Position numbers and translations under genes: made by a program. 64,000 nt of DNA, taken from assembly GCA_963665655.1 (NCBI GenBank), contig OY762429.1, positions 624,503-688,502 on the forward strand, read 5' to 3'. Below are positions 4,019-53,994 of this stretch, piece after piece. The DNA is from Terriglobia bacterium. Its GTDB lineage: Bacteria; Acidobacteriota; Terriglobia; Versatilivoradales; Versatilivoraceae. How positions within the stretch are numbered: position 1 is the stretch's first letter; the number at the start of each line of letters is the position of its first letter. Under the pieces are notes generated by a model that was given only the letters and a program-made list of their open reading frames with translations, ran no database searches and was not told the DNA's origin.

Positions 4019-5029
4019 TCACAGCTTGCCGGCAATGACGGCGGCCAGGTCGGCGGTTCGGCAGGCATAGCCCCACTCGTTGTCGTACCAGGCGACCACC
4101 TTGACCAGGTTGTCGATCACAATGGTGTCCACCGCGCTGAAGACGGAGGAGAAGGTGCTGCCCTTCAAGTCGGTCGAGACCAGGGGCTCGTCGGTCACCT
4201 CCAGGATGCCCTTCATGGAGTCCTGGGAGTAGTCGAGCATGGCCTGGCGGAGCTGGTCCCCGGTAGCCGACTGCTCCAGCACGGCCGTGAAATCGATGAC
4301 CGAGACGGTTGGGGTCGGCACCCGGAAGGCCATGCCCCCGAACTTCCCCTGAAGCTCCGGGATGACCAGCCCCACCGCCTTGGCGGCTCCGGTGGCCGCC
4401 GGCACGATGTTCTGGCCGGCTGAGCGGGCGTCCCTCATGTCCTTGGCCGCCAGATCCTGCAGCCGTTGGCTGTTGGTGTAGGCGTGCACGGTGGTCAGCA
4501 GCCCCTTCTGGATGCCGAAGCGGTCATAGAGGACCTTGGCGACCGGGGCCAGCCCGTTGGTGGTGCAGGAAGCGTTGGAGACCACCCGATGATTCTCGGG
4601 GTCGTATCGGTCTCCGTTGACCCCGAGCACGATGGTGATGTCCTCGTTCTTGGCCGGGGCGGAGATGATCACCTTCCTGGCGCCGCCCGATTCGATGTGG
4701 GCCTTGGCCTTGTTGGCGTCGGTGAAGACCCCGGTGGACTCGATCACCACCTCCACCCCCAGATCGGCCCAGCCGATGGCTGCCGGATCCCTCTCGGCCA
4801 GGATCCTGATCCTGCGGCCGTCCACCACCAGGGAACCGTTGTCGGCCGCGACCGCCCCCGGAAAAGGCCCGTAGGTGGAATCGTATTTCAGCAGATGAGC
4901 ATTGGTCTCGGCGGGAAACAGATCGTTGACGGCCGCCACCTCGATAGACTCCGGATGCCTCTCCAGAATCGCCCGGAGAACCTGCCGTCCAATCCTGCCG
5001 AATCCGTTGATGCCGATCTTTCTTGCCAT
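4019..5029 (-). CDS. gap: Type I glyceraldehyde-3-phosphate dehydrogenase.
   Basis: [12 protein letters not shown]-binding motif and ASCTTN active site, at full length (336 aa). Confidence 0.95.
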
Positions 5030-5279
5030 AGTTGCAGTCTCCTCAAAAAGTATTCAAAAAGGCTCGCGAAAACCTCCCCATTCTAACAGCAGAACCCATC
5101 GGCTTCGGTCTCATTGCGGAAGAAAACGATTTTAGTTGTGCGCCGGGACCGACTTGAAGGATGATCTCGTTCGTCTCCGCGGTCCGCAGTCCGGAACGGG
5201 GAGGCTGACCCATTTTTCTCACTCGGGGCCGGCCCCGGTCGGCTCCTCCCACTCCTTGGCGGCGTTCTGCCGGAATCTC

Positions 5280-5960
5280 ATGAGTGACTCCAGTCCCACA
5301 ACCCGTCGGGTGGCCGTCTTCAGCGACTTCGACGGGACCATCGGCCATCCCGACACCATCAACCTGCTGGCGGAAACCTTCGGGGGCGTGGAGTTTCGCA
5401 GGGACATCGGCGGCAAGATCGCCAGCGGAGAAATATCCCTCCGCGACGGAATCGCGGCCGAGGTGGCCACCATACGGGGCGACCTCGATCAAGTGCTGGA
5501 CTTTCTCAGGCAGCGGGTCAAGATCGACGAATCCTTTCCACCCTTTGCCCAATGGTGCCGGCAGAGGGACATTCCCCTGACCATCCTGAGTGCCGGCATC
5601 AAGGACGTCATCGAGCGACTGCTGGCGCCCTTCGAGCTCGATCACGTGCAGCTGCTGGCCAATCCCCTGGAGATCATCGACCACCGCTGGACCTTGCGTT
5701 TCCTGGACGACACCCCCTGGGGCCACGACAAGGCCGCGGCCCTGGTCCAGGCCCGCTCGGAAGGTTTTGCCACCGCTTTCCTGGGAGACGGGCTGTCCGA
5801 TCTGCGCGCCGCCAACCAGGCTGACATGGTCTTTGCCCGGAGCAGGCTGGCCAATCTCTGCCGGCAGAAACAGGTGCCGTTCTTCCCCCTGGACGATTTC
5901 TCCACGGTGGGCGCCACCATTACCCGGCACCTGATCCAAGGCAACGGCATCGGGCTCTGA
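5280..5960 (+). CDS. HAD-superfamily phosphatase, MtnX-like (2-hydroxy-3-keto-5-methylthiopentenyl-1-phosphate phosphatase family). Contains DFDGTI, a cap region and GDGLSDLRAANQADMVFAR.
   Basis: The ORF as supplied runs 5136..5960. The start was trimmed to the ATG at 5280 that precedes the VAVFSDFDGT motif I. Confidence 0.7.
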   Translation: MSDSSPTTRRVAVFSDFDGTIGHPDTINLLAETFGGVEFRRDIGGKIASGEISLRDGIAAEVATIRGDLDQVLDFLRQRVKIDESFPPFAQWCRQRDIPLTILSAGIKDVIERLLAPFELDHVQLLANPLEIIDHRWTLRFLDDTPWGHDKAAALVQARSEGFATAFLGDGLSDLRAANQADMVFARSRLANLCRQKQVPFFPLDDFSTVGATITRHLIQGNGIGL

Positions 5961-6032
5961 AGGCATTGAGCCCCTGCCTCCCGGATAGCCCAAGGGGTCC
6001 TGGCGAATCCTGAATCGGAGGTTGCGGAAGCC

Positions 6033-7430
6033 TTGAAAACACCGTTCAAGCCCCCCTCTCAAGGAAAGGCATCACTGATCCCTGGCGTCGCCAAGCGAAT
6101 CCCTCGGGTGGCGAGTCTTTGCTGGTTCTCCCTCCTGCTGATCGGGTCGGGATTGGCGCAGCCATCCGAGTCGGATCGCTCCTGGATCCCTCCCAGGGTC
6201 GATCGCGAATTCCCGTCCCTGTTCGAGCTCTACCGGCACCTGCACGCCAACCCCGAGATCGCCTTTCAAGAGGTCCGGACCGCTCAGCGCATGGCTCGGG
6301 AGCTGGAGGCCTCGGGCTTCGAGGTCAGCCGGGCCATCGGAGGGCACGGCGTCGTGGGTCTTCTCAGGAACGGAGAGGGGCCCACCCTCATGCTCAGAAC
6401 CGACCTGGACGGACTACCCATCACCGAGGAGACCGGCCTGGAATATGCCAGCAAGGTCCGCATTCAGGACCCCGCCGGACAATCCATCGGCCTCATGCAC
6501 GCCTGCGGCCACGATGTCCACATGACCTGCTTCGTGGGGGCGGCCCGGATTCTGAGCCGGGAGAAGAGTCGTTGGAAGGGCACCCTGCTGATGGTGGCTC
6601 AACCCGCCGAGGAACGCGGAGCCGGGGCCAGGGCCATGCTGGCCGACGGATTGTTCGAGAAGTTTCCGCTCCCCGACTACGCCATCGCGCTCCACAACCA
6701 CGCCGGCATGCAGGCGGGCCGGGTGGGAGTCTGCAGCGGCTATGCGCTGGCGGGTGTCGACTCCATCGATCTGACCGTTCGGGGCGTATCGGGACACGGC
6801 GGCTATCCTTCCACCACCAAGGATCCCGTGGTCATGGCCGCCCAGACCGTGCTGTCGCTCCAGACCATAGTCAGCCGGGAAATTCCGGCCATCGACCCGG
6901 CGGTGGTCACGGTGGGATCCATCCACGGGGGCAGCAAGCACAGCATCATTCCCGACGAGGTGCGGCTTCAGCTCACCGTCCGCTACTACACCGACGAAAC
7001 CCGCGACAGAATCCGCGACGGCATCGGGCGGATCTCGGAGGGGATCGCCCGCGCCGCCGGGATGCCCGCCAACCGTCTCCCGCTGATGTCGATTCTGGAC
7101 AGCACTCCACCCACCTACAACGATCCGGCGCTGGCCGTGCGGGCCAGCCAAGCCATGGCCCGGGTGCTGGGCAAGGACAATGTGCTGGATCTGAAGCCGG
7201 TGATGGGAGGCGAGGATTTCGGCCTCTACGGAAGGACCCCTCAGAAGGTGCCGGTCTGCATGTTCTGGCTGGGCGCCGTTGCCCCCAAGAAGATGGAAGC
7301 CAGCCGGAAACCGGGAGCCTCTCCCCTGCCCTCGCTCCACTCCAGCCGCTACGCGCCCGACCCGGAGCCCACCCTCAAGACGGGCGTCAAGGCCTTGACG
7401 GCCATAGCCCTGGATTTGCTGCAGCCTTGA
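6033..7430 (+). CDS. M20D-family amidohydrolase (N-acyl-amino-acid / hippurate hydrolase type) with an N-terminal signal peptide.
   Basis: HACGHDVHMT and the wider M20 architecture. 465 aa. Confidence 0.85.
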   Translation: MKTPFKPPSQGKASLIPGVAKRIPRVASLCWFSLLLIGSGLAQPSESDRSWIPPRVDREFPSLFELYRHLHANPEIAFQEVRTAQRMARELEASGFEVSRAIGGHGVVGLLRNGEGPTLMLRTDLDGLPITEETGLEYASKVRIQDPAGQSIGLMHACGHDVHMTCFVGAARILSREKSRWKGTLLMVAQPAEERGAGARAMLADGLFEKFPLPDYAIALHNHAGMQAGRVGVCSGYALAGVDSIDLTVRGVSGHGGYPSTTKDPVVMAAQTVLSLQTIVSREIPAIDPAVVTVGSIHGGSKHSIIPDEVRLQLTVRYYTDETRDRIRDGIGRISEGIARAAGMPANRLPLMSILDSTPPTYNDPALAVRASQAMARVLGKDNVLDLKPVMGGEDFGLYGRTPQKVPVCMFWLGAVAPKKMEASRKPGASPLPSLHSSRYAPDPEPTLKTGVKALTAIALDLLQP

Positions 7431-38007: not shown

Positions 38008-38298
38008 TCACCTTCGGACGTCGTACCGTTTCCAATCGGGCAGGTGGGCCGTCATCAGCGCCTTGAAGAGCTTGCCGTGGTTGGGAACGCGCAGGTGCAG
38101 CAACTCATGAGCAATGACGAAATTCTGGAAGTCCGTGTCCTGATCGGCCAGGTCGGCAGCCAGGGTGACGATTCCCGACGTGGAACAGGAACCCCACTTT
38201 CGCGTCATGCGCTGAACGCGAACCAGCCGCGGGCGCACATTCAGGCGTTGCGCCCAGTGCTCTACGCGACCGCGAATGGCTTTGCGCTGATCGTTCAT
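38008..38298 (-). CDS. Short YgjP-like M48/DUF45 zinc metallohydrolase (96 aa, C-terminal HELLH half only). It is translationally coupled (ATGA) to the hsdR stop.
   Basis: KWGSCS...[13 protein letters not shown] motif. Confidence 0.65.
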
Positions 38299-41267
38299 GC
38301 GTCGGCATCGGCGCTTGCGCCCAGGAGAATCGCGAGTATGTCCTCTACGACACGGCTCCGTTTGTCTTTGTCCAGTCTTAGAAGCGGTTGATAGAGGGCC
38401 GCCCGCAACCGCCTCTGCTCGTCCCCGTTGACCGTTGCGTTGGGGAAGCGCCCCAGGAGTGCATCGGCCTGCTTCCCAAGATCCTCGGCACCGACCTCAG
38501 CCATCCTCAACCGTTTGTCGTCCTTGAGCGCCCAATAGACGCCGAACCCACGCGGGGAAAGGCCACTATTTCTGGCCGCTACAACGGCCGCTTCCTTCTC
38601 CCGAGCGATTACCGCCAGCCGGTCCATGGCCTCAAGACCGGTGGCCTTGCGCTCCTCAAGGTCTTTCAGGATGCGCTCGGCGCGCTCCTTCAAGGGGAGC
38701 AGCACAGGCTCCAGGTCCGGCTCGCTGCTGATTTCGTGCCGGAGGCCGCGCACGAGGTTGAATACCTTTGCCTCGTCCGAACCCGACTCGCCTCGAAGGG
38801 CTTCGAGAGTGCTCACGTCGAACGTCACCGTTTTACTTGAGCGGCCGAGGCCTCCCTGGGCCGCGCTCTCCTGCACCATCAGGCGCGTCTTGTTCCCCAG
38901 GTCGATCGCGTAGTTGACCCGCGTGGCATAGGCATTGCGGACGGCTGCATAGAGATGAGCCAGGCGTTTGAAGGTCGAGATATGGTCCCGCAGCTCGGGT
39001 GACGGCGACAGGATCTCCCAAAGCGCCTCGATCTCCTTGTAGGCTTCGAAAAACGCCGTGCGCGATTCCAATTCCAGAAAGCGCCCATAGACGATGTGCT
39101 CCAGGCGCTCGTCTTGCCCGCCGGCCCCCTCGTCTTCGAGATATTCCGCCTTGGCCTTGGCGATCTTGAGATGGAAGTCTCTCATCAGCACATCCAGATC
39201 CTCGATCACCCCGCTTACGTCGGAGGAATCGAACTGCAGCGCCTTCTTCAACTCCCGGAGCACCCCCACGAAGTCGACGACCAGGCCAATGCGTTTGCGT
39301 CCACCGGCGGCGTCCACGTAGGGCCGGTTCACGCGGGCAATCGCCTGCAAAAGCACGTGGTCGCGCATCGGCTTGTCCAGGTACATGCAGTACAGCAGCG
39401 GCGCATCGTAGCCGGTCAGCAGCTTGTCGGTCACGATGAGGATCTTCGGATCCTCGTCCGCCTTCTTGAACATGAGCCGCATGTCCGCCTCCCGTTCGGG
39501 CGAGAGCTGAAGCTCTGCGACCAGCGGCCGGTCGACGATGTCGGCAGGGTTGTCGGTATAGACCGGCGCGGTCCATTCGGGCGGCAGCAGCTTGTCGAGG
39601 GCGCGTTTGTACTTGGCGCAGGCTTCGCGGTTCACCCCAACCAGGAACGCCTTGTAGCCGAGCGGAAAAACGTTCTCCCTGAAATGTTCGGCGACGAAAG
39701 CAGCGACTTTCTCGATCCGGTCGTCGGCGGTGAGGAAAGTCCTGAGACCCACGGCTTTGTCGAGGACGCGGTTCAGCTCATCGATGTCGGTGACCCCTTC
39801 CATCTCGGCCAGGGCGAAGAACTCCTTGTCCAGACGATCGACCGGAACGGTCATGCGGCCAGGCGCCATGGTATGGCGGATCGGCAAGGTGGTTTCGTCC
39901 TCGATCGATTCGGCAATGGTGTACTTGTCGAGATATCCCTGTTCGTCATCGGCGCCAAAAATCTTGAAGGTCCCCTCTCCATGCTCCGTTCGTGCAATGG
40001 GGGTGCCGGTGAAGCCGATGATGGTTGCATTGGGTACGGCCGCCATCAGGTAGGTGCCCAGGTCCTTGGCAACCGATCGGTGCGCCTCGTCGATGAAAAC
40101 GTAGATGTTGCCCCGCACATTGGCGTCTTTCTCGATGCCCTCGAACTTGTGGATCATCGAGAGGATCAAACCCCGCTTGTCGGTTTGGAGCATTTCTCGG
40201 AGATCGGCCCTGGAGTCGGCGCGCCAGACAGGGATGTCCTGCTGCTGCATCTCCCCGAGAAGCCGTTCCACCCAGCCTGCGAGCTGGCCCTCCAGATCGG
40301 TTCGGTCCACCACCACAACCACCGTCGGCGTGTGGAACTTGGCCTTGGCTTCCAGGATCAATCGTGCGGCCGTCAGCAGAGTGAAGGTCTTGCCGGATCC
40401 CTGGGTGTGCCAGACCAGACCGCGGCGCCTTGCCGGCTCGGAGCAGCGTTCCACAATGCGCCCCACCGCCCGGCGCTGGTGTTGGCGAAGCACGGACTTG
40501 CGCGTCTCGCCGTCCTCGACGTAGAAGAGGATCCAGTCGCGTAGCGTTCGAAGAAAGTCGGTCGGCTCGAAGAAGGACTGGACGGCGAACCGATAGCTTT
40601 CCTCGGGCTGCTCCTTCCAGCGCGCCATGAAGCGGCGTGAGACGTTCCAGGTGACGCCATACCAGTAGTCGAGCAGATGGGTAACGTTGAAGAGCTGGGC
40701 CGCACCCATCAGCTCGGGCGTCTCCTTCTCATAGCGCCGCAACTGTGTGAGGCCCTTCTCGATGGCATCCGCGTCCGTGGGGTTCTTGTGTTCGACGATG
40801 GCCGCCGGCACGCCGTTGACCACGAACATCACGTCCGCACGGTTGCCCTTGCGCGCCGGTGGCTTGAGCTTCCATTCCCAGGTGACGTGCAACAGGTTGG
40901 ACGCCGGCCTCTCAAAATCGACGATTTGGACAGGCCGGTGACGCTGCTCGGCCTCGTCGTACCACTGCCGCTCCCCGCGCAGCCAGGCAAGCATCTCGCG
41001 GTTCCCCTCGATGGTCGGCGGGAGTGCTTCGAGTCGTTCCGCGACGGCGCGGACGGCGCCGTCTGTCAACCAGGGATTGAACCGGTGCAGGGCAACTTCG
41101 AGTTCGCCTTGAAACAGCAGCCCTGCTTCACCGCCTCGCTTCTGCCGAGCATCCTGCGGCGAGATCGGCGTCCAGCCAATTTCCTCGGCGTGACGTACCA
41201 TCGGGAACTGCACGGAGCCGGCTTCAGTGATGTGGAGGGTGGTCACCAATGACTCTCCGCTTAACAA
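38295..41267 (-). CDS. hsdR: Type I restriction enzyme, R (helicase-nuclease) subunit.
   Basis: 990 aa. Typical N-terminus. TQGSGKT Walker A. SF2 helicase motifs. Confidence 0.95.
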
Positions 41268-41318
41268 TTCCCCTTGTTGGCTGTATCTTTATCTAATTGG
41301 TTTCCCAAGGGGTTGGCG

Positions 41319-41552
41319 ATGATCACCGTGAATGTCCGTGAAGCAAAAACCAACCTGTCCCGCCTGCTGGCGCAAGTCGAGGCAGGCGAGGAGGTCATCA
41401 TCGCCCGCAACGGCAAGCCGGTGGCGCGCCTGGCGCCACTCCAAGAGCGGGGCAGGCCCCAACCCGATGTCTTCAAGGGAAAATTCGTCCTCCCGGACAG
41501 TTTCTTCGACCCGCTGCCTGAGGAAGAGTTGAAAGCGTGGGAAGGTGGTTGA
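41319..41552 (+). CDS. Phd/YefM-family antitoxin, copy 1.
   Basis: MITVNVREAKTNLSRLL... 77 aa. Confidence 0.8.
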   Translation: MITVNVREAKTNLSRLLAQVEAGEEVIIARNGKPVARLAPLQERGRPQPDVFKGKFVLPDSFFDPLPEEELKAWEGG

Positions 41553-41555
41553 GAT

Positions 41556-41625
41556 TGCGACTGCTGCTCGACACCCATGCCCTCATTTGGTGGCTCACCG
41601 AAAGCAGGCGCCTTGGTGTTCCCGC
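41556..41625 (+). pseudogene. vapC (PIN toxin) 5' remnant. Only ~21 codons remain (MRLLLDTHALIWWLTESRRLG) before the sequence runs into R-repeat copy 1.
   Basis: Homologous to the N-terminus of the intact VapC at 42247. Confidence 0.55.
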
Positions 41626-41708
41626 TTGTCGATCATCTATGAACATCAAAGTGCGTTGTCGATCATTTTCTTGAGAAAGTGATCGACAAAGAGCGTTGCT
41701 TGTCATAG
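41611..41708. repeat. R-family repeat, copy 1 (~100 bp). It holds TTGTCGATCA twice in direct orientation and once inverted. These form a hairpin with a 15-bp stem and a 4-nt loop (TTGTCGATCATTTTC-TTGA-GAAAGTGATCGACAA).
   Basis: Direct reading. Copies 2 and 3 lie at 42643-42762 and 44661-44770. Confidence 0.7.
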
Positions 41709-41715
41709 CTCCATG

Positions 41716-41955
41716 TCACAGCTTGTCATGGCTTGGGACCAGGCTACCCCTCGTCATCCAGGGATTGAACCAGTGGAGTGCTCCTTCCAACTCGCTTGGA
41801 AACAACAGCCCGGCTTCGCCGCCTCTCATGGCGAGGGCTTCCCGCGACGAGATCGGCGTCCAGCCAATTCCCTGGGCGTGACGCGCCATCGGGAACTGCA
41901 CGGAGTTGGCTTCGGCGATGTGGAAGTCCGTCACCGCCCGTCCTCCGTTTGACAA
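41716..41955 (-). pseudogene. Duplicated fragment of the hsdR 5' end (first ~70 codons, ~75% identical to the real hsdR N-terminus).
   Basis: ORF 41716..41955(-) aligned against the HsdR N-terminus. Confidence 0.7.
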
Positions 41956-42006
41956 GCCGAGGCATTAGTCATATCATTAGCTAAACTGACCGGAGAGGAG
42001 CAAGCA

Positions 42007-42243
42007 ATGGTAACGGTGAACGTCCACGATGCGAAGACCCACCTGTCGCGCCTCCTGGTCCAGGTCGAAGCAGGGGAGGAGGTCATCATCGCCCGCAACG
42101 GAAACCCTGTAGCCCGGCTGGTGAGCTGCAAGAAGCACCGTAAGCGAAAACCCGGTTCCATGACAGGGCTTTTTACGGTACCCGACAGCTTCTTTGATCC
42201 ACTGCCCGAAGAGGAGTTGGCCGCATGGGAAGGGAACCCATAG
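42007..42243 (+). CDS. Phd/YefM-family antitoxin, copy 2.
   Basis: MVTVNVHDAKTHLSRLL... 78 aa. Confidence 0.8.
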   Translation: MVTVNVHDAKTHLSRLLVQVEAGEEVIIARNGNPVARLVSCKKHRKRKPGSMTGLFTVPDSFFDPLPEEELAAWEGNP

Positions 42244-42246
42244 CGG

Positions 42247-42633
42247 ATGCGGCTACTTTTGGACACCCACGCCTTTCTGTGGTGGATCATCAATGACGAC
42301 CGGTTGTCACAGGCTGCCAGGCGGGCAATAGCGGACGACGATAACGACGTGCTGGTCAGTGCAGTTTCCACCTGGGAGATTACGACCAAGCACCGAACCG
42401 GTAAACTGCCCGCGGCAGAGCCACTGGCCGAGAATATCGTTCGGGCGATAGGTCTCGAAGGCTTCGGGGAGCTGCCCATCACCGTAGACGAAGCCGCCCG
42501 CGCGGGCGCGCTTCCCGGCCCCCTCCGTGACCCGTTCGACAGGATGCTCATCGCCCAGGCGCTGGCCCGCAACTTGGTCCTCCTATCCAACGAGTCTCTT
42601 TTCGACCGCTACGACGTCCGCCGCTTGTGGTGA
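42247..42633 (+). CDS. vapC: VapC PIN-domain toxin, intact.
   Basis: LLDTHAFLWW ... PIN acidic residues. 128 aa. Confidence 0.85.
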   Translation: MRLLLDTHAFLWWIINDDRLSQAARRAIADDDNDVLVSAVSTWEITTKHRTGKLPAAEPLAENIVRAIGLEGFGELPITVDEAARAGALPGPLRDPFDRMLIAQALARNLVLLSNESLFDRYDVRRLW

Positions 42634-46525: not shown

Positions 46526-47761
46526 TTACGCGACTTTCTTGAATGTAAGAACTACCTCACGTCGGATGCGGCCATCAAGCGCTGCCGGCTTTCGTTGTTT
46601 GGATGGCGGTGGCAGGTAGCGACGGTTCGCTGGTAAGTCTCTCGAACGGCGGGCAATGCAGTGGAGACCCACTCTGTTGGCAATCTCCTCTACTATCAAG
46701 GAATTAGGAACAAATGTGCCGCGCACGGTGTTTTCGCCAACCACATACACAGCCTTTCCACGCTCAGTGAGCACTCTAGCCGTCTCCCCCACGGCAAGCC
46801 ACATATCGTCGATGTACCGGACCAGAATTGATTCCCACCTCCTTTGCAGTTTAGGTTGTAGATTCAGTTGGAGGAGAATTCTGTGGACATCATTGTTGTC
46901 GTCCGCACCTTTACCGACTTCCGTGCCCACGATGGTTGACCTAAGACGGCGCACCTCTCTGATGGAATAACCCATCCAGACCAACGAGAACTTACTGCAC
47001 CGTAAGTAGTCGATAGCGTTCAAGTACGGTGGAGATGTAAGTACCAGGTCGATAGAGCCGTCGTCTATGGGAAGACTGCGTGCATCGCCCCGATGCACGC
47101 ACGCAATCGGGCCGGTATTAGGGAGACTGATGTTGATGCAGTTGTTGGCAACACGTTCTACAGACAACCGGAACTTGGAGAAGGGCTTTAGCGGGGCTCG
47201 CTCAAATGCCTTGTGCGGTCGGCTGTGAGAAAGGTCCCTTGCCAGCGAGGCACCGGACTGCTTGGCAATGATCAGACGAGAGAAGGCACACCACAAAGCA
47301 TCTCGGATTTTCTCATCACGAACATCCTGGATTGCCGTGGCGAGTGAAGCAAGTTGGCGTCGCACATAGTCATCGAACCAGAATCTTATGAACTTTCGAG
47401 TCTCGTCGTCTGCATTCTCAGGGTATGCGTCGCGTGTGCGTAATGACGAGAACAATTGACGCGCGAGTTCAAGTACCTCGGTGCCTTTCTCCTGCAAGGC
47501 TGCTGAGTCAATTGCAGTCGTCCAGACCCTCGAAATGAGCACTGCCAGAGGGTCAATGTCAATACCGATTGCATGGTGTCCCTTTGCACGCGCAATTGCG
47601 AGCACCGTTCCCGATCCCGACATCGGATCGAGAACCCGAAGGGAATCTTTGTGATCTTCGACTACGTCTAGAGCAAGGTCTGGCGCCATCCGAGCCGGAA
47701 ACGGATGGACCGCCCCCCGACCTAGGATCTCGTAGGCGTTCCTACTGTTTGATCGGTTCAT
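46526..47761 (-). CDS. N4/N6 DNA methyltransferase, alpha-like motif order. Motif I (DPMSGSGT) is near the N-terminus. Motif IV (TSPPY) is at ~aa 262.
   Basis: 411 aa. Its start lies 7 bp downstream of the GHKL-nuclease stop. Confidence 0.85.
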   Translation of the reverse strand: MNRSNSRNAYEILGRGAVHPFPARMAPDLALDVVEDHKDSLRVLDPMSGSGTVLAIARAKGHHAIGIDIDPLAVLISRVWTTAIDSAALQEKGTEVLELARQLFSSLRTRDAYPENADDETRKFIRFWFDDYVRRQLASLATAIQDVRDEKIRDALWCAFSRLIIAKQSGASLARDLSHSRPHKAFERAPLKPFSKFRLSVERVANNCINISLPNTGPIACVHRGDARSLPIDDGSIDLVLTSPPYLNAIDYLRCSKFSLVWMGYSIREVRRLRSTIVGTEVGKGADDNNDVHRILLQLNLQPKLQRRWESILVRYIDDMWLAVGETARVLTERGKAVYVVGENTVRGTFVPNSLIVEEIANRVGLHCIARRSRDLPANRRYLPPPSKQRKPAALDGRIRREVVLTFKKVA

Positions 47762-47767
47762 AATCTC

Positions 47768-50350
47768 TCACCCCTGATATCGTTCATCAGATGGATAATC
47801 CTGCAAAGCTGTTTCGATGGCGCCAATCACGTTCTCCGCACTCTGGTCGAGTTCTACCTTCTCTGACGTAGCGAAAATAGCACCAGGTGCCATCTGGGTC
47901 ATCGCTCTACAGAGGTCGCAGAGTTCGTCATCCGTTTGGTACTCGATGGGAGGCCGAAGATGAGAGAGCTCGACCCGGAGGGCAGAGTAGCGTACCGACG
48001 CTTTGTTGAACTTCTTCTGCAACTGGGCGATAGTCTCAACGATCTTGCGATAGGGAGGATTTTCGACAGACGACTTGCGGATAGATTCGACCCAATCAAA
48101 ACTCTGGTTGGGGAGGCTGCATTCTCTGAAAAGCTCACGTATCTTCCGAAGTCCTACCTGTTTGACGGGGCGCAACCGGACGAGCCGGGCAAGATCATCC
48201 ACTGTGAGGAGGGTAATTGTGCGGTTTTCTCCTGCAGCAGCTGACTTGCGCCTATCATCCTTGATAGATTGTCCGAGCGCTGAATTGTCCCCTTCAGAGG
48301 TTGGAAACGCCGGTCCTACAACAAGGGCATGATCGCATTTGTATTGGTCACGATGCCTAATTACTGCCGCGATGTCAGTATCTTTTGCGGAGGCCTTCGT
48401 GTTGCTCCTCTCTTTGCTCTTTGCCTCCAGGCTCACGGTGTAACGCTGAGGATTACCCTTGTCATCTGCCGGCAGGTGTGCGGTCGCCGCTCCGTCGGGG
48501 CGCCCCTTTTTGCCAAGAGGTGTCACGTCGAACCCGAGGCTGCGGAATGCGTTGCAAACGCTTTCCTCCAGACGGTCCGGGCTGTTGCGCGCTTCCAACA
48601 GCGTGTTGGCGACGGATAGTGCGCTCTTATGGCCTGACTCGTTGGCAAGATGGCGTAGAAGCTGATCGCGTGCTGAGAGAAATTCATCAATCTCGCTTGC
48701 CCTCACGGCGATCGAATGGAGATACGCTTCGGCAAGGACCTCAGCCATTGCAAACATCTCCAGTGGTTGTCCCAGTTTCTTGTTGGTGAATTCGTCATGG
48801 AACGTGGCTACGAAAGGGTGCCATCCATTCAATCGTAAAGCGCCCGATTCCGTGTCGAACCTGACGATCCCGTCGCGTGATGAACCTCCAAAGTCAATCG
48901 TGACACCTGTGACGAATCGCTCCGCGTTGGACGCCCGTTGCTCAAGGTCAAAGAGAAATGCTTCCCGCTCCTCCCTTGATTCGTGCCTCGGGACCATCAG
49001 GTGGCGGGCCTTACTCTTGCACTCCGCAACAGCTCGCGAGAGCTCAATGATCGGCCTACGTGTCAAGCTGGCCGGACTAGCGGCGAGCTTGCGAGCAAGC
49101 TTCTCACCTGGCTCTTCACCCTGATCGTGAATCTCGATCGCAGGACGCACCGCATTGAAGATCGCCCTAAGTACGTCCTGGGCCCTTTCGAGTAGCGGGC
49201 CCTCGCTAACTGCTTCCCGGTTCGACCGGAGCCCATCGTCCAGTCCGTCCATATGAACAACGAGACGGAAGCGCCCGAACGTACCGTGTCTCAACTCGTT
49301 AGGCGAAATTCCGAAGTGTCCATCGGAAACGTTGAGGAGCCGTCCGTAAACGTAAACAAAGAATCCATGACTCCGGCTGATTTCGTCCGATTTTCCAGTC
49401 AGCAGGTCCTTATACGCCTCTGCGTACCCTGTGATGCGCCCTAGTCCTGGGACATTGAGCCCGAAGCGATGCTCGCTAATCTCAGGCAGGCTCTTGTCCG
49501 GCGACTCCGTTATTCCCTTGGGGCTCGGACGCGGAAGTTCTACCAAGTCCTGCCCAAGGACCCAGCGCTTAAGTAAACCCTTACCTTGCTTGCTTGGTTC
49601 GAGCTTCTCGCCGTCTAACCAGATGCTGAAGTCAGGTCGCAAGGGCAGTGCAGTCCGCAAGACCCATCGGAGTACCCCCGGCCTTATCTCGTGGACCTTG
49701 TCTTTCAAAGCAGACATGATCCCAATCGTCCAAGAATCTGGACTGCCCTTCCCAAAGAGTACGGTATTTGCAGCCTGGAATGCGGGAGACTGAGTCCATG
49801 GGCTGACAGCCTGCTCCGCTTGAGCAGGGGTCAACTCGCGGAGCGCGATCCTTACCGGTGTCTTCGGCTCGACATTGTCATCAACACGCCTATCGATCTT
49901 GCGGTAGTTCATGGATGTGGAGTAGTATCTCGTGCCTCTCTTGCTGATGTGGGTCAAACGATTCGCAAGCACATAGGTCGCGAGCTTACCGATTCCAAAC
50001 TTCCCGATCTGCTGCCTACCGCGCGGCAGCACAGAACGCCGGCGTTTCCTGCTGACGCCAATCAGCCAGTGCTGCCTGAGTCCCTGCTGATTCATCCCTT
50101 CGCCATCATCAATCACCGCAATCGTCGCATCCTGCCTATGAAGGTTCGGTGAAAGAATCACATGCACGCCCAGAGCACCCGCGTCGAAGGAATTCGCCAC
50201 CAGTTCCTCTATGGCTTTGTTGGGACTGGTATACAAGCCTTCGGAGAACAACTCGACGATCCTATAGCTAAGGCGGACGTCGATTTTGCCGGTCTCGCTA
50301 CCAATGGAGGCAAATGTAGGCGCATTATCCAATTGAAACTCCTCCATCAC
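47768..50350 (-). CDS. GHKL (Bergerat-fold, MutL/Hsp90/MORC-like) ATPase fused to a C-terminal Mrr-like PD-(D/E)xK restriction-endonuclease domain.
   Basis: The N-terminus has EELVANSFDAGA...VIDDGEGM...GKFGIGK. The C-terminus has FRSLGFDV...RPDGAA...YTVSLEAKSK...ALVVGPAF. 860 aa. Confidence 0.8.
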   Translation of the reverse strand: MMEEFQLDNAPTFASIGSETGKIDVRLSYRIVELFSEGLYTSPNKAIEELVANSFDAGALGVHVILSPNLHRQDATIAVIDDGEGMNQQGLRQHWLIGVSRKRRRSVLPRGRQQIGKFGIGKLATYVLANRLTHISKRGTRYYSTSMNYRKIDRRVDDNVEPKTPVRIALRELTPAQAEQAVSPWTQSPAFQAANTVLFGKGSPDSWTIGIMSALKDKVHEIRPGVLRWVLRTALPLRPDFSIWLDGEKLEPSKQGKGLLKRWVLGQDLVELPRPSPKGITESPDKSLPEISEHRFGLNVPGLGRITGYAEAYKDLLTGKSDEISRSHGFFVYVYGRLLNVSDGHFGISPNELRHGTFGRFRLVVHMDGLDDGLRSNREAVSEGPLLERAQDVLRAIFNAVRPAIEIHDQGEEPGEKLARKLAASPASLTRRPIIELSRAVAECKSKARHLMVPRHESREEREAFLFDLEQRASNAERFVTGVTIDFGGSSRDGIVRFDTESGALRLNGWHPFVATFHDEFTNKKLGQPLEMFAMAEVLAEAYLHSIAVRASEIDEFLSARDQLLRHLANESGHKSALSVANTLLEARNSPDRLEESVCNAFRSLGFDVTPLGKKGRPDGAATAHLPADDKGNPQRYTVSLEAKSKERSNTKASAKDTDIAAVIRHRDQYKCDHALVVGPAFPTSEGDNSALGQSIKDDRRKSAAAGENRTITLLTVDDLARLVRLRPVKQVGLRKIRELFRECSLPNQSFDWVESIRKSSVENPPYRKIVETIAQLQKKFNKASVRYSALRVELSHLRPPIEYQTDDELCDLCRAMTQMAPGAIFATSEKVELDQSAENVIGAIETALQDYPSDERYQG

Positions 50351-51506
50351 TCAGGAGACTCAGTTTTTTCACCTGAACCTCCCCTGTCATCAGTTTGTAC
50401 AGTAGTGCCTTGAAAAGATCGCAGAGCACTGCGCTCTTTCTTCGGTGCAAGTTAATCTTGCGGTCAATAGCCTCAAGGACCGCGGCGATTTCGCGCTGCT
50501 CGTCAATTCGCGGTAGCGGGATTTTGTGCTCATTAATCACGCCTTGCGTTATCAGCGGTTGCCCCGCCATTCGCCTGAATCGGTTGAGATTGTAATATTC
50601 GAGAAAAGCCGCAATAAACGCTACGTCCGCATTGTAGTTATGCCACTCCTTCGCGTAGAGCGCATTATCAGTCACCCAAACTTTGCCGGATGCAATATGC
50701 ACCGCACCGCAGTACTCACCTACTCGTCCAATGATAAGGGCCTGCGGCACATCCAAATACCATTCGCTGGCGAACCCCATCACGCCATTGCCACCAAGAA
50801 CAGGAAACGGCTTCTCATCATTCGGGAGATTCGACAAGGTACTCGGCCGCTTTTTTCCACTTGTTAGTCTGAAAATCTGGTCACAAGGAGTTAATATCCA
50901 ACTCTTCGGTATCAGCCCGATTTCGGTTCCCTTCTGCGGCTCGCCCCGCAGGCCGCTCGTGAACAGCGTCTGCACTGCGGCGCGTTTGAGGGTCTGGCCT
51001 TGCTCGACCAACTTCTCTGATCGGCGGATCGCCTCATGGGCGAGCCAAAGCAGGTCGGCAATCCGCCGCTGTTCATCGACCGTGAAGGCGGGCACTTCAA
51101 AGTTGCGTACGTGCGCCCATGACGTTCTCGGATGCTGGACGCCCGTAGTTCCCGCGACGGCGTGCTCCAGGAAGCCATCTGAATGAGCAACCGTAGCCAA
51201 GAATCTCGGGTTCACATCCTCTTTGGCCCGGAGCACCAGCAACTCCGTCGTGCAGACACCCGGCTCGTCAGCCAATATGGCCTTGTCGAGATAGGGACGG
51301 AGCTTTCCGTATAGCACGTCACCGGGTTGGAACGCGGAGGTGGCGCTTCGCATCTCCGAGGCCCGACCGCCGCCAATTCGAACCAGCCGCCCGGAAGCAA
51401 GATTTTCCAGACCAAGATAGAGCGCATCCGGCCGCTCACCGGGTTTGACCGGCTCCCTGACCAGGTCGCACAGGTCAGCGAGGCGAACCGTTTTCCTTGC
51501 AGTCAC
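50325..51506 (-). CDS. hsdS: Type I R-M specificity subunit, with two target-recognition domains.
   Basis: 393 aa with a typical HsdS N-terminus and central conserved region. Confidence 0.85.
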   Translation of the reverse strand: MTARKTVRLADLCDLVREPVKPGERPDALYLGLENLASGRLVRIGGGRASEMRSATSAFQPGDVLYGKLRPYLDKAILADEPGVCTTELLVLRAKEDVNPRFLATVAHSDGFLEHAVAGTTGVQHPRTSWAHVRNFEVPAFTVDEQRRIADLLWLAHEAIRRSEKLVEQGQTLKRAAVQTLFTSGLRGEPQKGTEIGLIPKSWILTPCDQIFRLTSGKKRPSTLSNLPNDEKPFPVLGGNGVMGFASEWYLDVPQALIIGRVGEYCGAVHIASGKVWVTDNALYAKEWHNYNADVAFIAAFLEYYNLNRFRRMAGQPLITQGVINEHKIPLPRIDEQREIAAVLEAIDRKINLHRRKSAVLCDLFKALLYKLMTGEVQVKKLSLLSDGGVSIG

Positions 51507-51874
51507 GCCAGCCCCTTCAACCGCACGGCCGGCAGTCTATTCAACTGCTGACTTCGCGGGTCCACCTCGATGCCGACGGACTCCAGCGCCGTCACGCCCA
51601 GCAGCGGCTCTGCGTCAGATTCGCCGAAGATGACTGTCCCGCCGACGAATTCACCCATGAACTCAATCTTGGCGACGGTGACATCCACCGTGATCTCGCT
51701 CCCATCGGCCAGTTCATAGATGCGCTTCCCCTCTGGCTTGAGGCCAATGGCTTCCAGGTGAGGCCTAGGCACCAAGGAATCGGTGACCCCTGTGTCAACC
51801 AGAAACAGACCCTCCCAAAACCGGTCCGGCTCCGCGGGGTTGGTAATCCTGACCGTTACGTGCGTCGCTCCCAT
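51503..51874 (-). CDS. Retropepsin-like (clan AA) aspartic protease (LVDTGVTDSLV), 123 aa. It lies between hsdM and hsdS with a 4-bp overlap.
   Basis: DTG motif in a small single-domain protein. Confidence 0.65.
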   Translation of the reverse strand: MGATHVTVRITNPAEPDRFWEGLFLVDTGVTDSLVPRPHLEAIGLKPEGKRIYELADGSEITVDVTVAKIEFMGEFVGGTVIFGESDAEPLLGVTALESVGIEVDPRSQQLNRLPAVRLKGLA

Positions 51875-51909
51875 GTTCCTTCCTCCCTTCGCTCCCGAGT
51901 ATCCATAGT

Positions 51910-53742
<1,833 letters not shown>

Positions 53743-53994
53743 ATATGCTTTATAACAAATATAGCAGAGTTTGCCAAGAGATTTTCTTCGAGCCAAGGAT
53801 GAGCGCCGAAGGGGATATCGGCGTGGACAGAATGCGGGCGGGACGCCCGCGCTCCCGGGGGATACCGCCCGTCGGGCACTTCTCAAAGACCTGACGCGGC
53901 ACACGAGCGTCCCGGCATTGATAATCCCGGGCGTTGCTGCCATAATGGCGGCGTCGTGCATGTGCTTTGGGGGATTGTTCAGGGAGGTTTCTCG

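Follow-up and report, generated by a model that had tools for sequence, protein, structure and literature searches.

The genes for the methylase subunit HsdM and the specificity subunit HsdS of type I restriction-modification (R-M) systems normally abut or overlap. Guest genes embedded in type I loci are non-Hsd genes that are co-expressed with hsd and optional from strain to strain. Here, we analyse a stretch of 64,000 nucleotides (nt) from a Terriglobia bacterium (assembly GCA_963665655.1, contig OY762429.1, positions 624,503 to 688,502 of the forward strand), called the window throughout, in which a gene for a small retropepsin-like aspartic protease stands between hsdM and hsdS. The window protease is like the known guest genes in these respects; it differs from them in its position between hsdM and hsdS and in being a protease, not a nuclease or an ATPase, and its functional coupling to R-M is hypothetical.

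In the ImmA/ImmR and CapP/CapH pairs, a protease cleaves a helix-turn-helix (HTH) repressor. These pairs resemble the window in that a defence operon with an operator-like palindrome begins with an HTH_3 domain and has a protease gene next to it. However, the window protease is an aspartic enzyme and not a zinc metalloprotease, its HTH neighbour is fused to an enzyme, and HTH and protease do not co-occur consistently.

The family TIGR03698 (clan_AA_DTGF) is matched by the window protein over its full length, and its members are likewise small, cytosolic-looking single-domain proteins with a D-T-G site; the motif in the family name is DTGF, whereas the window protein has DTGV and its close relatives DTGA. 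With the HIV-1 and SIV proteases (MEROPS A2) the window protein has in common the modelled fold, the D-T-G site, the flap hairpin and a hydrophobic-hydrophobic-Gly motif. The identity is about 20%, and the window protease is encoded by a free-standing bacterial gene whereas the retroviral enzymes are cut from the Gag-Pol polyprotein. Single-lobe aspartic proteases of the same clan have been described in bacteria: APRc/ApRick of Rickettsia (PMC4140852; PDB 5c9d), RimB (PMC11957791) and the secreted Rlo of P. aeruginosa (PMC12239564). In the parts of these reports that we draw on, the proteins are membrane-anchored, secreted or involved in ribosome modification, and none is described in an R-M operon.

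Our literature searches on TIGR03698 found no characterised member and no mention of the accession, and those combining retropepsin, clan AA or aspartyl protease with R-M, hsdS/hsdM, toxin-antitoxin or defence returned nothing relevant. A published description of the hsdM-protease-hsdS arrangement was not found either. Guest genes within type I loci are known already, as is the protease family, whereas this arrangement and its breadth are undescribed. An initial annotation, made from the sequence of the window, had pointed out the protease and considered it an accessory effector, for instance one that processes a subunit or takes part in abortive infection, or a selfish passenger. The observation is confirmed here, and the interpretation is partly supported.

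A conserved retropepsin-like protease between hsdM and hsdS

The central part of the locus comprises four features (lengths of proteins in amino acids, aa):

51910 to 53742, minus strand: hsdM, type I methylase of 610 aa; HTH_3 domain at the N-terminus, then an acidic, Arg-rich linker (Pfam, PADLOC)
51875 to 51909, minus strand: hsdM-protease spacer of 35 nt with the Shine-Dalgarno sequence GGAGG at 51882-51886 (read from the sequence)
51503 to 51874, minus strand: retropepsin-like clan AA aspartic protease of 123 aa, ATG start, with D27-T28-G29, A56-D57-G58 and P90-L-L-G93
50325 to 51506, minus strand: hsdS, specificity subunit of 393 aa, GTG start (Pfam Methylase_S; PADLOC Specificity_I)

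The protein encoded at 51503-51874 scores 83.1 bits against NCBIfam TIGR03698 (cut-off 57.35; profile positions 1-107 of 107) and 30.5 bits against Pfam Asp_protease_2 (cut-off 24.3). It has 6,528 homologues, and the best 120 are all more than 80% identical. D27, T28, G58, P90, L91, L92 and G93 are invariant among 40 close homologues, and G29 is kept in 39 of them, the single exception being DTR. Even across 12 homologues that reach down to about 31% identity, F24, D27, T28, G29, G58, P90, L92 and G93 do not vary. The flap hairpin extends over residues 49 to 72 or so and includes A56-D57-G58. An AlphaFold2 model built on a deeper alignment is confident (predicted local distance difference test score, pLDDT, 91.4; predicted template modelling score, pTM, 0.83); it supersedes a first model from a shallow alignment that reached a pLDDT of only 70 yet already matched the SIV/HIV protease. 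In a Foldseek search of the PDB, the top 50 hits were all HIV-1 protease, with a probability of 1.0, a TM-score of up to 0.75 (normalised to the target) and a root mean square deviation of 2.5 Å. By sequence, the best PDB match is ApRick of Rickettsia; it is marginal (E = 0.6), and the alignment spans the DTG and LLG motifs. By analogy with the retropepsins as a whole, the enzyme is probably a homodimeric aspartic protease to which each chain would contribute one D-T-G.

The reading frame of 123 aa and its motif LVDTGVTDSLV (residues 25 to 35) are as initially annotated. The claim of a single-domain retropepsin-like protease holds as well: the family score, the conservation, the AlphaFold model and the match to HIV-1 protease agree that the catalytic Asp and the fold are kept, so that the structure prediction proposed as a check on the DTG-flap retropepsin fold came out in its favour (pLDDT 91.4, TM-score 0.75 to HIV-1 protease).

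The protease gene is under strong purifying selection at the protein level. The ratio of nonsynonymous to synonymous substitutions (dN/dS) is 0.080 at a dS of about 0.9 (Nei-Gojobori), as compared to 0.079 for the core of hsdM, and protease copies outside R-M loci have 0.076. Other parts of hsdM have higher values (HTH domain, 0.12; linker, 0.29). The open reading frame (ORF) of the protease is intact in 79 of the 80 close loci.

The gene is tightly built into the operon. The stop codon of hsdM ends at 51910, leaving a gap of 35 nt (51875-51909) and not of 36 bp, as had been noted initially, and the GGAGG sequence lies 7 nt ahead of the protease ATG. The TGA stop codon of the protease (51503-51505) overlaps the GTG start codon of hsdS (51506-51504) by 4 nt, just as previously annotated. 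In related loci, the hsdM-protease spacer is typically 21-35 nt long, and the overlap of protease and hsdS is 4 nt in most. When the coding strand from hsdM to hsdS was scanned, no promoter-like or terminator-like site was detected. The ribosome-binding site, the overlap and the absence of internal sites thus support the operon integration that had been proposed, and we infer that hsdM, the protease and hsdS are carried on one transcript from the hsdM promoter. The flanking genes had been named correctly, as judged by Pfam and PADLOC. HsdM contains the Pfam domains HTH_3/HTH_31, HsdM_N and N6_Mtase, scores 504 bits with PADLOC MTase_I and has its true start at 53742; the N-terminus of HsdS, MTARKTVRLADL, agrees with those of homologous hsdS genes.

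The GC content at third codon positions drops stepwise from hsdM (0.84; host genes, 0.86-0.89) via the protease (0.76) to hsdS (0.62), and the distal genes for the HATPase_c_3 protein and a methyltransferase (see below) have 0.62 and 0.57. The falling values along 50325-53742 are consistent with distal modules that were acquired later.

The hsdM-protease-hsdS order recurs in roughly seven phyla

Reference contigs, with one genome per species, contained 431 stretches with a relative of the protease, and the best 80 of these 431 were examined. The order hsdM-protease-hsdS is the same in about 40 of the 80 loci, which come from roughly seven phyla; they belong to Chloroflexota, Acidobacteriota (Ca. 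Versatilivorator), Latescibacterota, Nitrospirota, Gemmatimonadota, Ca. Entotheonella and Gammaproteobacteria, and many of them are located on closed chromosomes. The taxa and the isolate names suggest sponge-associated communities as the source. In these loci HsdM is always HTH-fused and 80-94% identical to that of the window, and the HsdS proteins of related loci are merely 28-69% identical. The divergence of HsdS is consistent with a swapping of target-recognition domains.

Because the ORFs are intact, the dN/dS ratio is low and the order recurs in several phyla, we conclude that selection acts on the encoded protein and that the M-protease-S arrangement is old and widespread. The search for homologues between hsdM and hsdS in other genomes, which the initial annotation had proposed, thus has a positive answer, and neither a lost catalytic Asp, nor a lost fold, nor a unique occurrence, any of which would have spoken against it, applies. 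A strongly conserved third cistron between hsdM and hsdS in about seven phyla represents an undescribed operon variant. It also offers an initial genomic approach to the TIGR03698 family, whose roughly 2,000 clusters (at 50% identity) have no known function.

One locus of the Vicinamibacterales is built differently (L064, 5968-11158). The protease gene is located directly upstream of a different type I hsdM that lacks the HTH domain (27% identical), followed by an ORF of 249 aa that looks TIR-like by eye and then by hsdS. This may be an independent association of the protease with a type I locus.

The protease is optional and lies in a swapped module

All of the 120 best hsdM homologues are HTH-fused. 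A sample taken from the hsdM side comprises six loci whose hsdM is 84-91% identical to that of the window. The protease is present in two of them, and in the other four (L168, L169, L171 and L172) hsdM overlaps hsdS directly. The window, L167 (with the protease) and L168 and L172 (both without it) occupy the same chromosomal locus next to PspA/DUF4178. The sequences of L167 and L168 agree at 97.4% over a stretch of 4,717 bp; the similarity ends about 120 nt ahead of the hsdM stop codon, and what follows is unrelated. The protease is therefore part of a recombining module that consists of the hsdM 3' tail, the protease if there is one, and hsdS. Fragments of an hsdM 3' end behind the protease in L004 and L037, and a remnant of an hsdS 5' end in L170, fit such module swapping. 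In a neighbour-joining tree, most of the R-M-linked copies group together in one clade that also includes a few non-R-M copies, and this topology points to one or a few putative capture events into R-M systems.

The protease is an optional and not a core part of the R-M system. A role as a required partner, or in the subunit processing that had been considered initially, conflicts with the finding that four of the six sister loci run hsdM straight into hsdS, with the inconsistent co-occurrence with the HTH domain and with the solo copies of the wider family. The passenger idea comes closer to the evidence, but the gene is strongly selected and functional (dN/dS 0.08) and not decaying. The natural pairs with and without the protease at one chromosomal locus are ready experimental material.

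Two kinds of insertion traces were sought and rejected. The flanks of 42 loci without an hsdM match share only a Shine-Dalgarno-like motif and no common repeats or att-like sites that could mark the ends of a mobile element. A likeness between the C-terminal tail of the protease and the hsdM tail, as a possible insertion footprint, beats the controls in only seven of 37 loci and is specific to this subset; the window just misses the 0.05 cut-off (control fraction 0.055).

Copies outside type I R-M systems

About 30 of the 80 close copies are not in a recognisable defence context, and many stand alone among housekeeping genes. The immediate neighbours of the 40 genome copies outside R-M loci are diverse and mostly unrelated to defence, among them ABC-2 permeases, ClpX and enolase-superfamily proteins. 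Three metagenome-assembled genomes carry both an R-M-linked and a solo copy (L013/L069, L011/L075 and L017/L080). For a divergent subfamily (42-57% identical to the window protein), 80 metagenome loci had neither hsdM nor hsdS nearby and no recurrent neighbour. When the neighbours of the 40 non-R-M and the 80 divergent loci were clustered, no recurrent partner gene emerged; a type II toxin-antitoxin or two-gene abortive-infection module was rejected for lack of a conserved adjacent partner in these loci. None of the PADLOC-DB 2.0 models matched the protease at E <= 0.01, and no homologue was found among PLSDB plasmids and INPHARED phages.

A second methylase-based context did recur. In at least seven genome loci, the protease gene directly follows a gene for an HTH_3-SNF2-NOV_C helicase of about 1,200 aa, with a DUF1156 methylase and an AAA_15/21 ATPase nearby. 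PADLOC assigns this helicase to HmaA (E = 4e-172), and the islands therefore correspond to the Hma helicase-methylase-ATPase system. HsdM and the Hma helicase have homologous HTH domains. Among HTH-fused Hma helicases, those of L161 and L165 have no protease and that of L163 has an intact copy 2.2 kb downstream; among HTH-less ones, L162 has an intact protease, L166 two fragments and L164 one fragment. Hma islands hold the protease gene repeatedly, in some cases in a decaying state.

Several members of the family depart from the window protein. The divergent proteins P0139, P0163, P0192, P0210 and P0156 have AGTG, DHRT, AGIG, NTG and DGS, respectively, in place of D-T-G, and some branches are therefore probably inactive pseudo-proteases. 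Longer members carry extra regions: AbiJ_NTD4 in P0128, HATPase_c_4 (a Pfam domain named after the RecG C-terminus) in P0156, and an unannotated C-terminal region behind the protease domain in P0132; P0222 is also longer. L146 (1670-5243) and L157 (1664-5237) each have three paralogous copies within about 3.6 kb, with identities of 66%, 46% and 29% to the window protein. In L056 and L078 (around 4680-6380), the protease gene begins 10 bp after clpX, which may be a coincidence; in E. coli, the unfoldase ClpX brings about restriction alleviation.

Possible functions of the protease

With a probability of roughly 45%, and thus tentatively, we propose that the window gene encodes a functional autonomous cargo protease that rides a mobile specificity module and likely acts outside the R-M complex. 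In this view, a type I cassette that spreads horizontally and has an HTH-fused HsdM took up the gene as a third, optional cistron. The gene lies inside the recombining specificity module, between the hsdM 3' tail and hsdS. Its transcription would start at the hsdM promoter, and the 4-nt overlap couples its translation to that of hsdS. The R-M enzyme would mature independently of the protease, which is not a core subunit but would, most likely, act autonomously on a substrate outside the R-M complex as the solo paralogues presumably do. The linkage to hsd would go back to one or a few insertions, and it would be maintained by the mobility of the hsdS module and by selection on the gene itself. 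If the protease does not act on R-M, the locus still illustrates cleanly how a single cargo gene under high constraint can ride a recombining specificity module.

Several points weigh against this proposal. The protease recurs in type I R-M and in Hma, two restriction-like systems built on a methylase, which is more than a random landing would suggest; in the Hma islands, L162, L163 and seven genome loci have intact copies, whereas L164 and L166 have fragments, and the recurrence near defence genes is given as raw counts. Relatives are fused to the defence-type domains AbiJ_NTD4 and HATPase_c_4. The tight integration, with the overlap being kept through hsdS swaps, could reflect a functional tie. 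Finally, the sample from the hsdM side consists of six loci only.

It is tempting to see in the protease an accessory regulator that cleaves HsdR or another subunit and thereby damps restriction while a new specificity methylates the chromosome. ClpXP-dependent restriction alleviation is known for EcoKI, and the window protease would be a portable version of it. Its location in the swapped module implies that it travels with each new specificity; moreover, the translational coupling to hsdS, the presence in the Hma system and the spread of the cassette across roughly seven phyla, where help in establishment would pay, are all in favour of this idea. We nevertheless consider it unlikely: four of six sister loci of the same HsdM clade, two of them at the window's own chromosomal position in related genomes, manage without the protease, many solo copies stand among housekeeping genes, and a divergent subfamily has no R-M linkage at all. 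Moreover, no sequence specialisation sets the R-M-linked copies apart from the solo ones, their dN/dS is equal, and the substrate is purely hypothetical. If the enzyme does act on the R-M machinery, this would be a new self-contained control of restriction during horizontal transfer or a switch of specificity.

The protease might also be a defence or abortive-infection effector, or a combined sensor and effector, that is lodged in defence islands, as other guests of type I loci are, and cleaves phage or host proteins upon infection; this, too, we regard as doubtful. Type I R-M and Hma islands place it beside AAA_15/21, SIR2 and toxin-antitoxin genes, the other genes embedded in the window locus are of defence or toxin-antitoxin types, and the fusions to AbiJ_NTD4 and HATPase_c_4 fit as well. 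Yet it matches no PADLOC family, a recognisable defence context is lacking for about 30 of the 80 close copies and for practically all of the 80 divergent ones, and a recurring partner or immunity gene is missing. The phage (INPHARED) and plasmid (PLSDB) collections yielded no homologue, and there is therefore no signal of an arms race.

A broader and rather improbable idea is that of a portable controller of methylase-based systems, both type I R-M and Hma, that restrains or resets the restriction motor or destroys anti-restriction proteins of phages. If so, cassettes and new specificities could establish themselves in unrelated hosts without the ClpXP of the host.

The protease could, finally, process the HTH-linker-enzyme fusions like a small polyprotein, in the manner of ImmA/ImmR or CapP/CapH, and so set free an HTH domain for autoregulation of the operon. 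In 40 R-M loci and at least seven Hma loci, the gene directly upstream begins with a homologous HTH_3 domain; this domain is followed by a fast-evolving linker (dN/dS 0.29), and a conserved palindrome covers the hsdM promoter and start codon. The loci sampled via the helicase and via hsdM led us to drop this idea, which is very improbable: HTH-HsdM lacks the protease in four of six loci, two of three HTH-helicases lack it, all three HTH-less helicases have the protease or its remnants, and solo copies have no HTH neighbour. That the gene is a chance ORF or a decaying pseudogene, as the many spurious ORFs in all six frames of this GC-rich DNA and the gene fragments elsewhere in L164, L166 and L033 might suggest, is refuted by a family score above the curated cut-off, 6,528 homologues, an in-frame dN/dS of 0.08, the intact catalytic motif and the confident structure model.

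Promoter and palindrome upstream of hsdM

Two candidate control elements precede hsdM:

53749 to 53777, minus strand: putative operon promoter with the -35 element TTGGCA at 53772-53777, a 17-nt spacer and the -10 element TATAAA at 53749-53754
53737 to 53763, no strand assigned: imperfect palindrome that spans the hsdM start codon and the -10 element, a candidate operator for the HTH domain of HsdM (inverted repeats I1 and I3)

The pattern TTGAC(A)-17-TATAnT is kept upstream of hsdM in most of 37 aligned related loci (L001-L072). An automated promoter scan did not flag the site at 53749-53777 since its -10 hexamer ends in A. The -10 element is located only 6 nt ahead of the hsdM ATG in the window and 6-7 nt ahead across loci, and an mRNA that starts from this putative promoter would be of the leaderless type. 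Most related loci have a clearer palindrome, CTGTTATA-N16-TATAACAG, at the same place over the -10 element and the first codons, and it is weaker in the window. This candidate operator suggests a C-protein-like autoregulation by the HTH domain that is fused to HsdM.

The surrounding type I locus

Three further genes complete the locus, the first two serving as context only:

47768 to 50350, minus strand: HATPase_c_3 protein of 860 aa with a weak Mrr_cat-like region, after hsdS
46526 to 47761, minus strand: type II-like DNA methyltransferase of 411 aa, partner of the HATPase_c_3 gene
38295 to 41267, minus strand: hsdR, restriction subunit of 990 aa (Pfam HSDR_N, SWI2_SNF2, ResIII and T1R_D3-like)

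HsdM, HsdS and HsdR (HSDR_N and SF2 helicase) are all encoded here, which identifies a type I R-M system. On the minus strand, hsdM, the protease, hsdS, the HATPase_c_3 gene and the type II-like methyltransferase gene are followed by DUF433, Fic and MNT/HepT genes, then by Phd/PIN modules with an hsdR 5'-end remnant, hsdR and a short YgjP-like peptidase ORF; hsdR is thus found about 9 kb downstream of hsdS, past an inserted toxin-antitoxin and Fic island. Guest genes between hsdS and hsdR are familiar in type I loci, whereas a gene between hsdM and hsdS is unusual.

The HATPase_c_3 and methyltransferase pair (46526-50350) overlaps the 3' end of hsdS. The same pair is present in L042 (74% and 71% identical), and the HATPase_c_3 gene also follows hsdS in L172; the pair looks like a second, embedded R-M-like module. 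A duplicate of the hsdR 5' end that encodes 79 aa (41716-41955; 60% identical to HsdR residues 3-79) is placed between two Phd-like antitoxin genes and a PIN toxin gene (41274-42633), just upstream of the intact hsdR. It is a scar of insertion or recombination before hsdR. At the other end of hsdR, the YgjP-like metallopeptidase ORF (38008-38298, minus strand) overlaps the hsdR stop codon; it covers only profile positions 113-200 of 207 and is therefore a short or truncated form. L060 and L070 have full-length YgjP-like genes just ahead of the protease gene.

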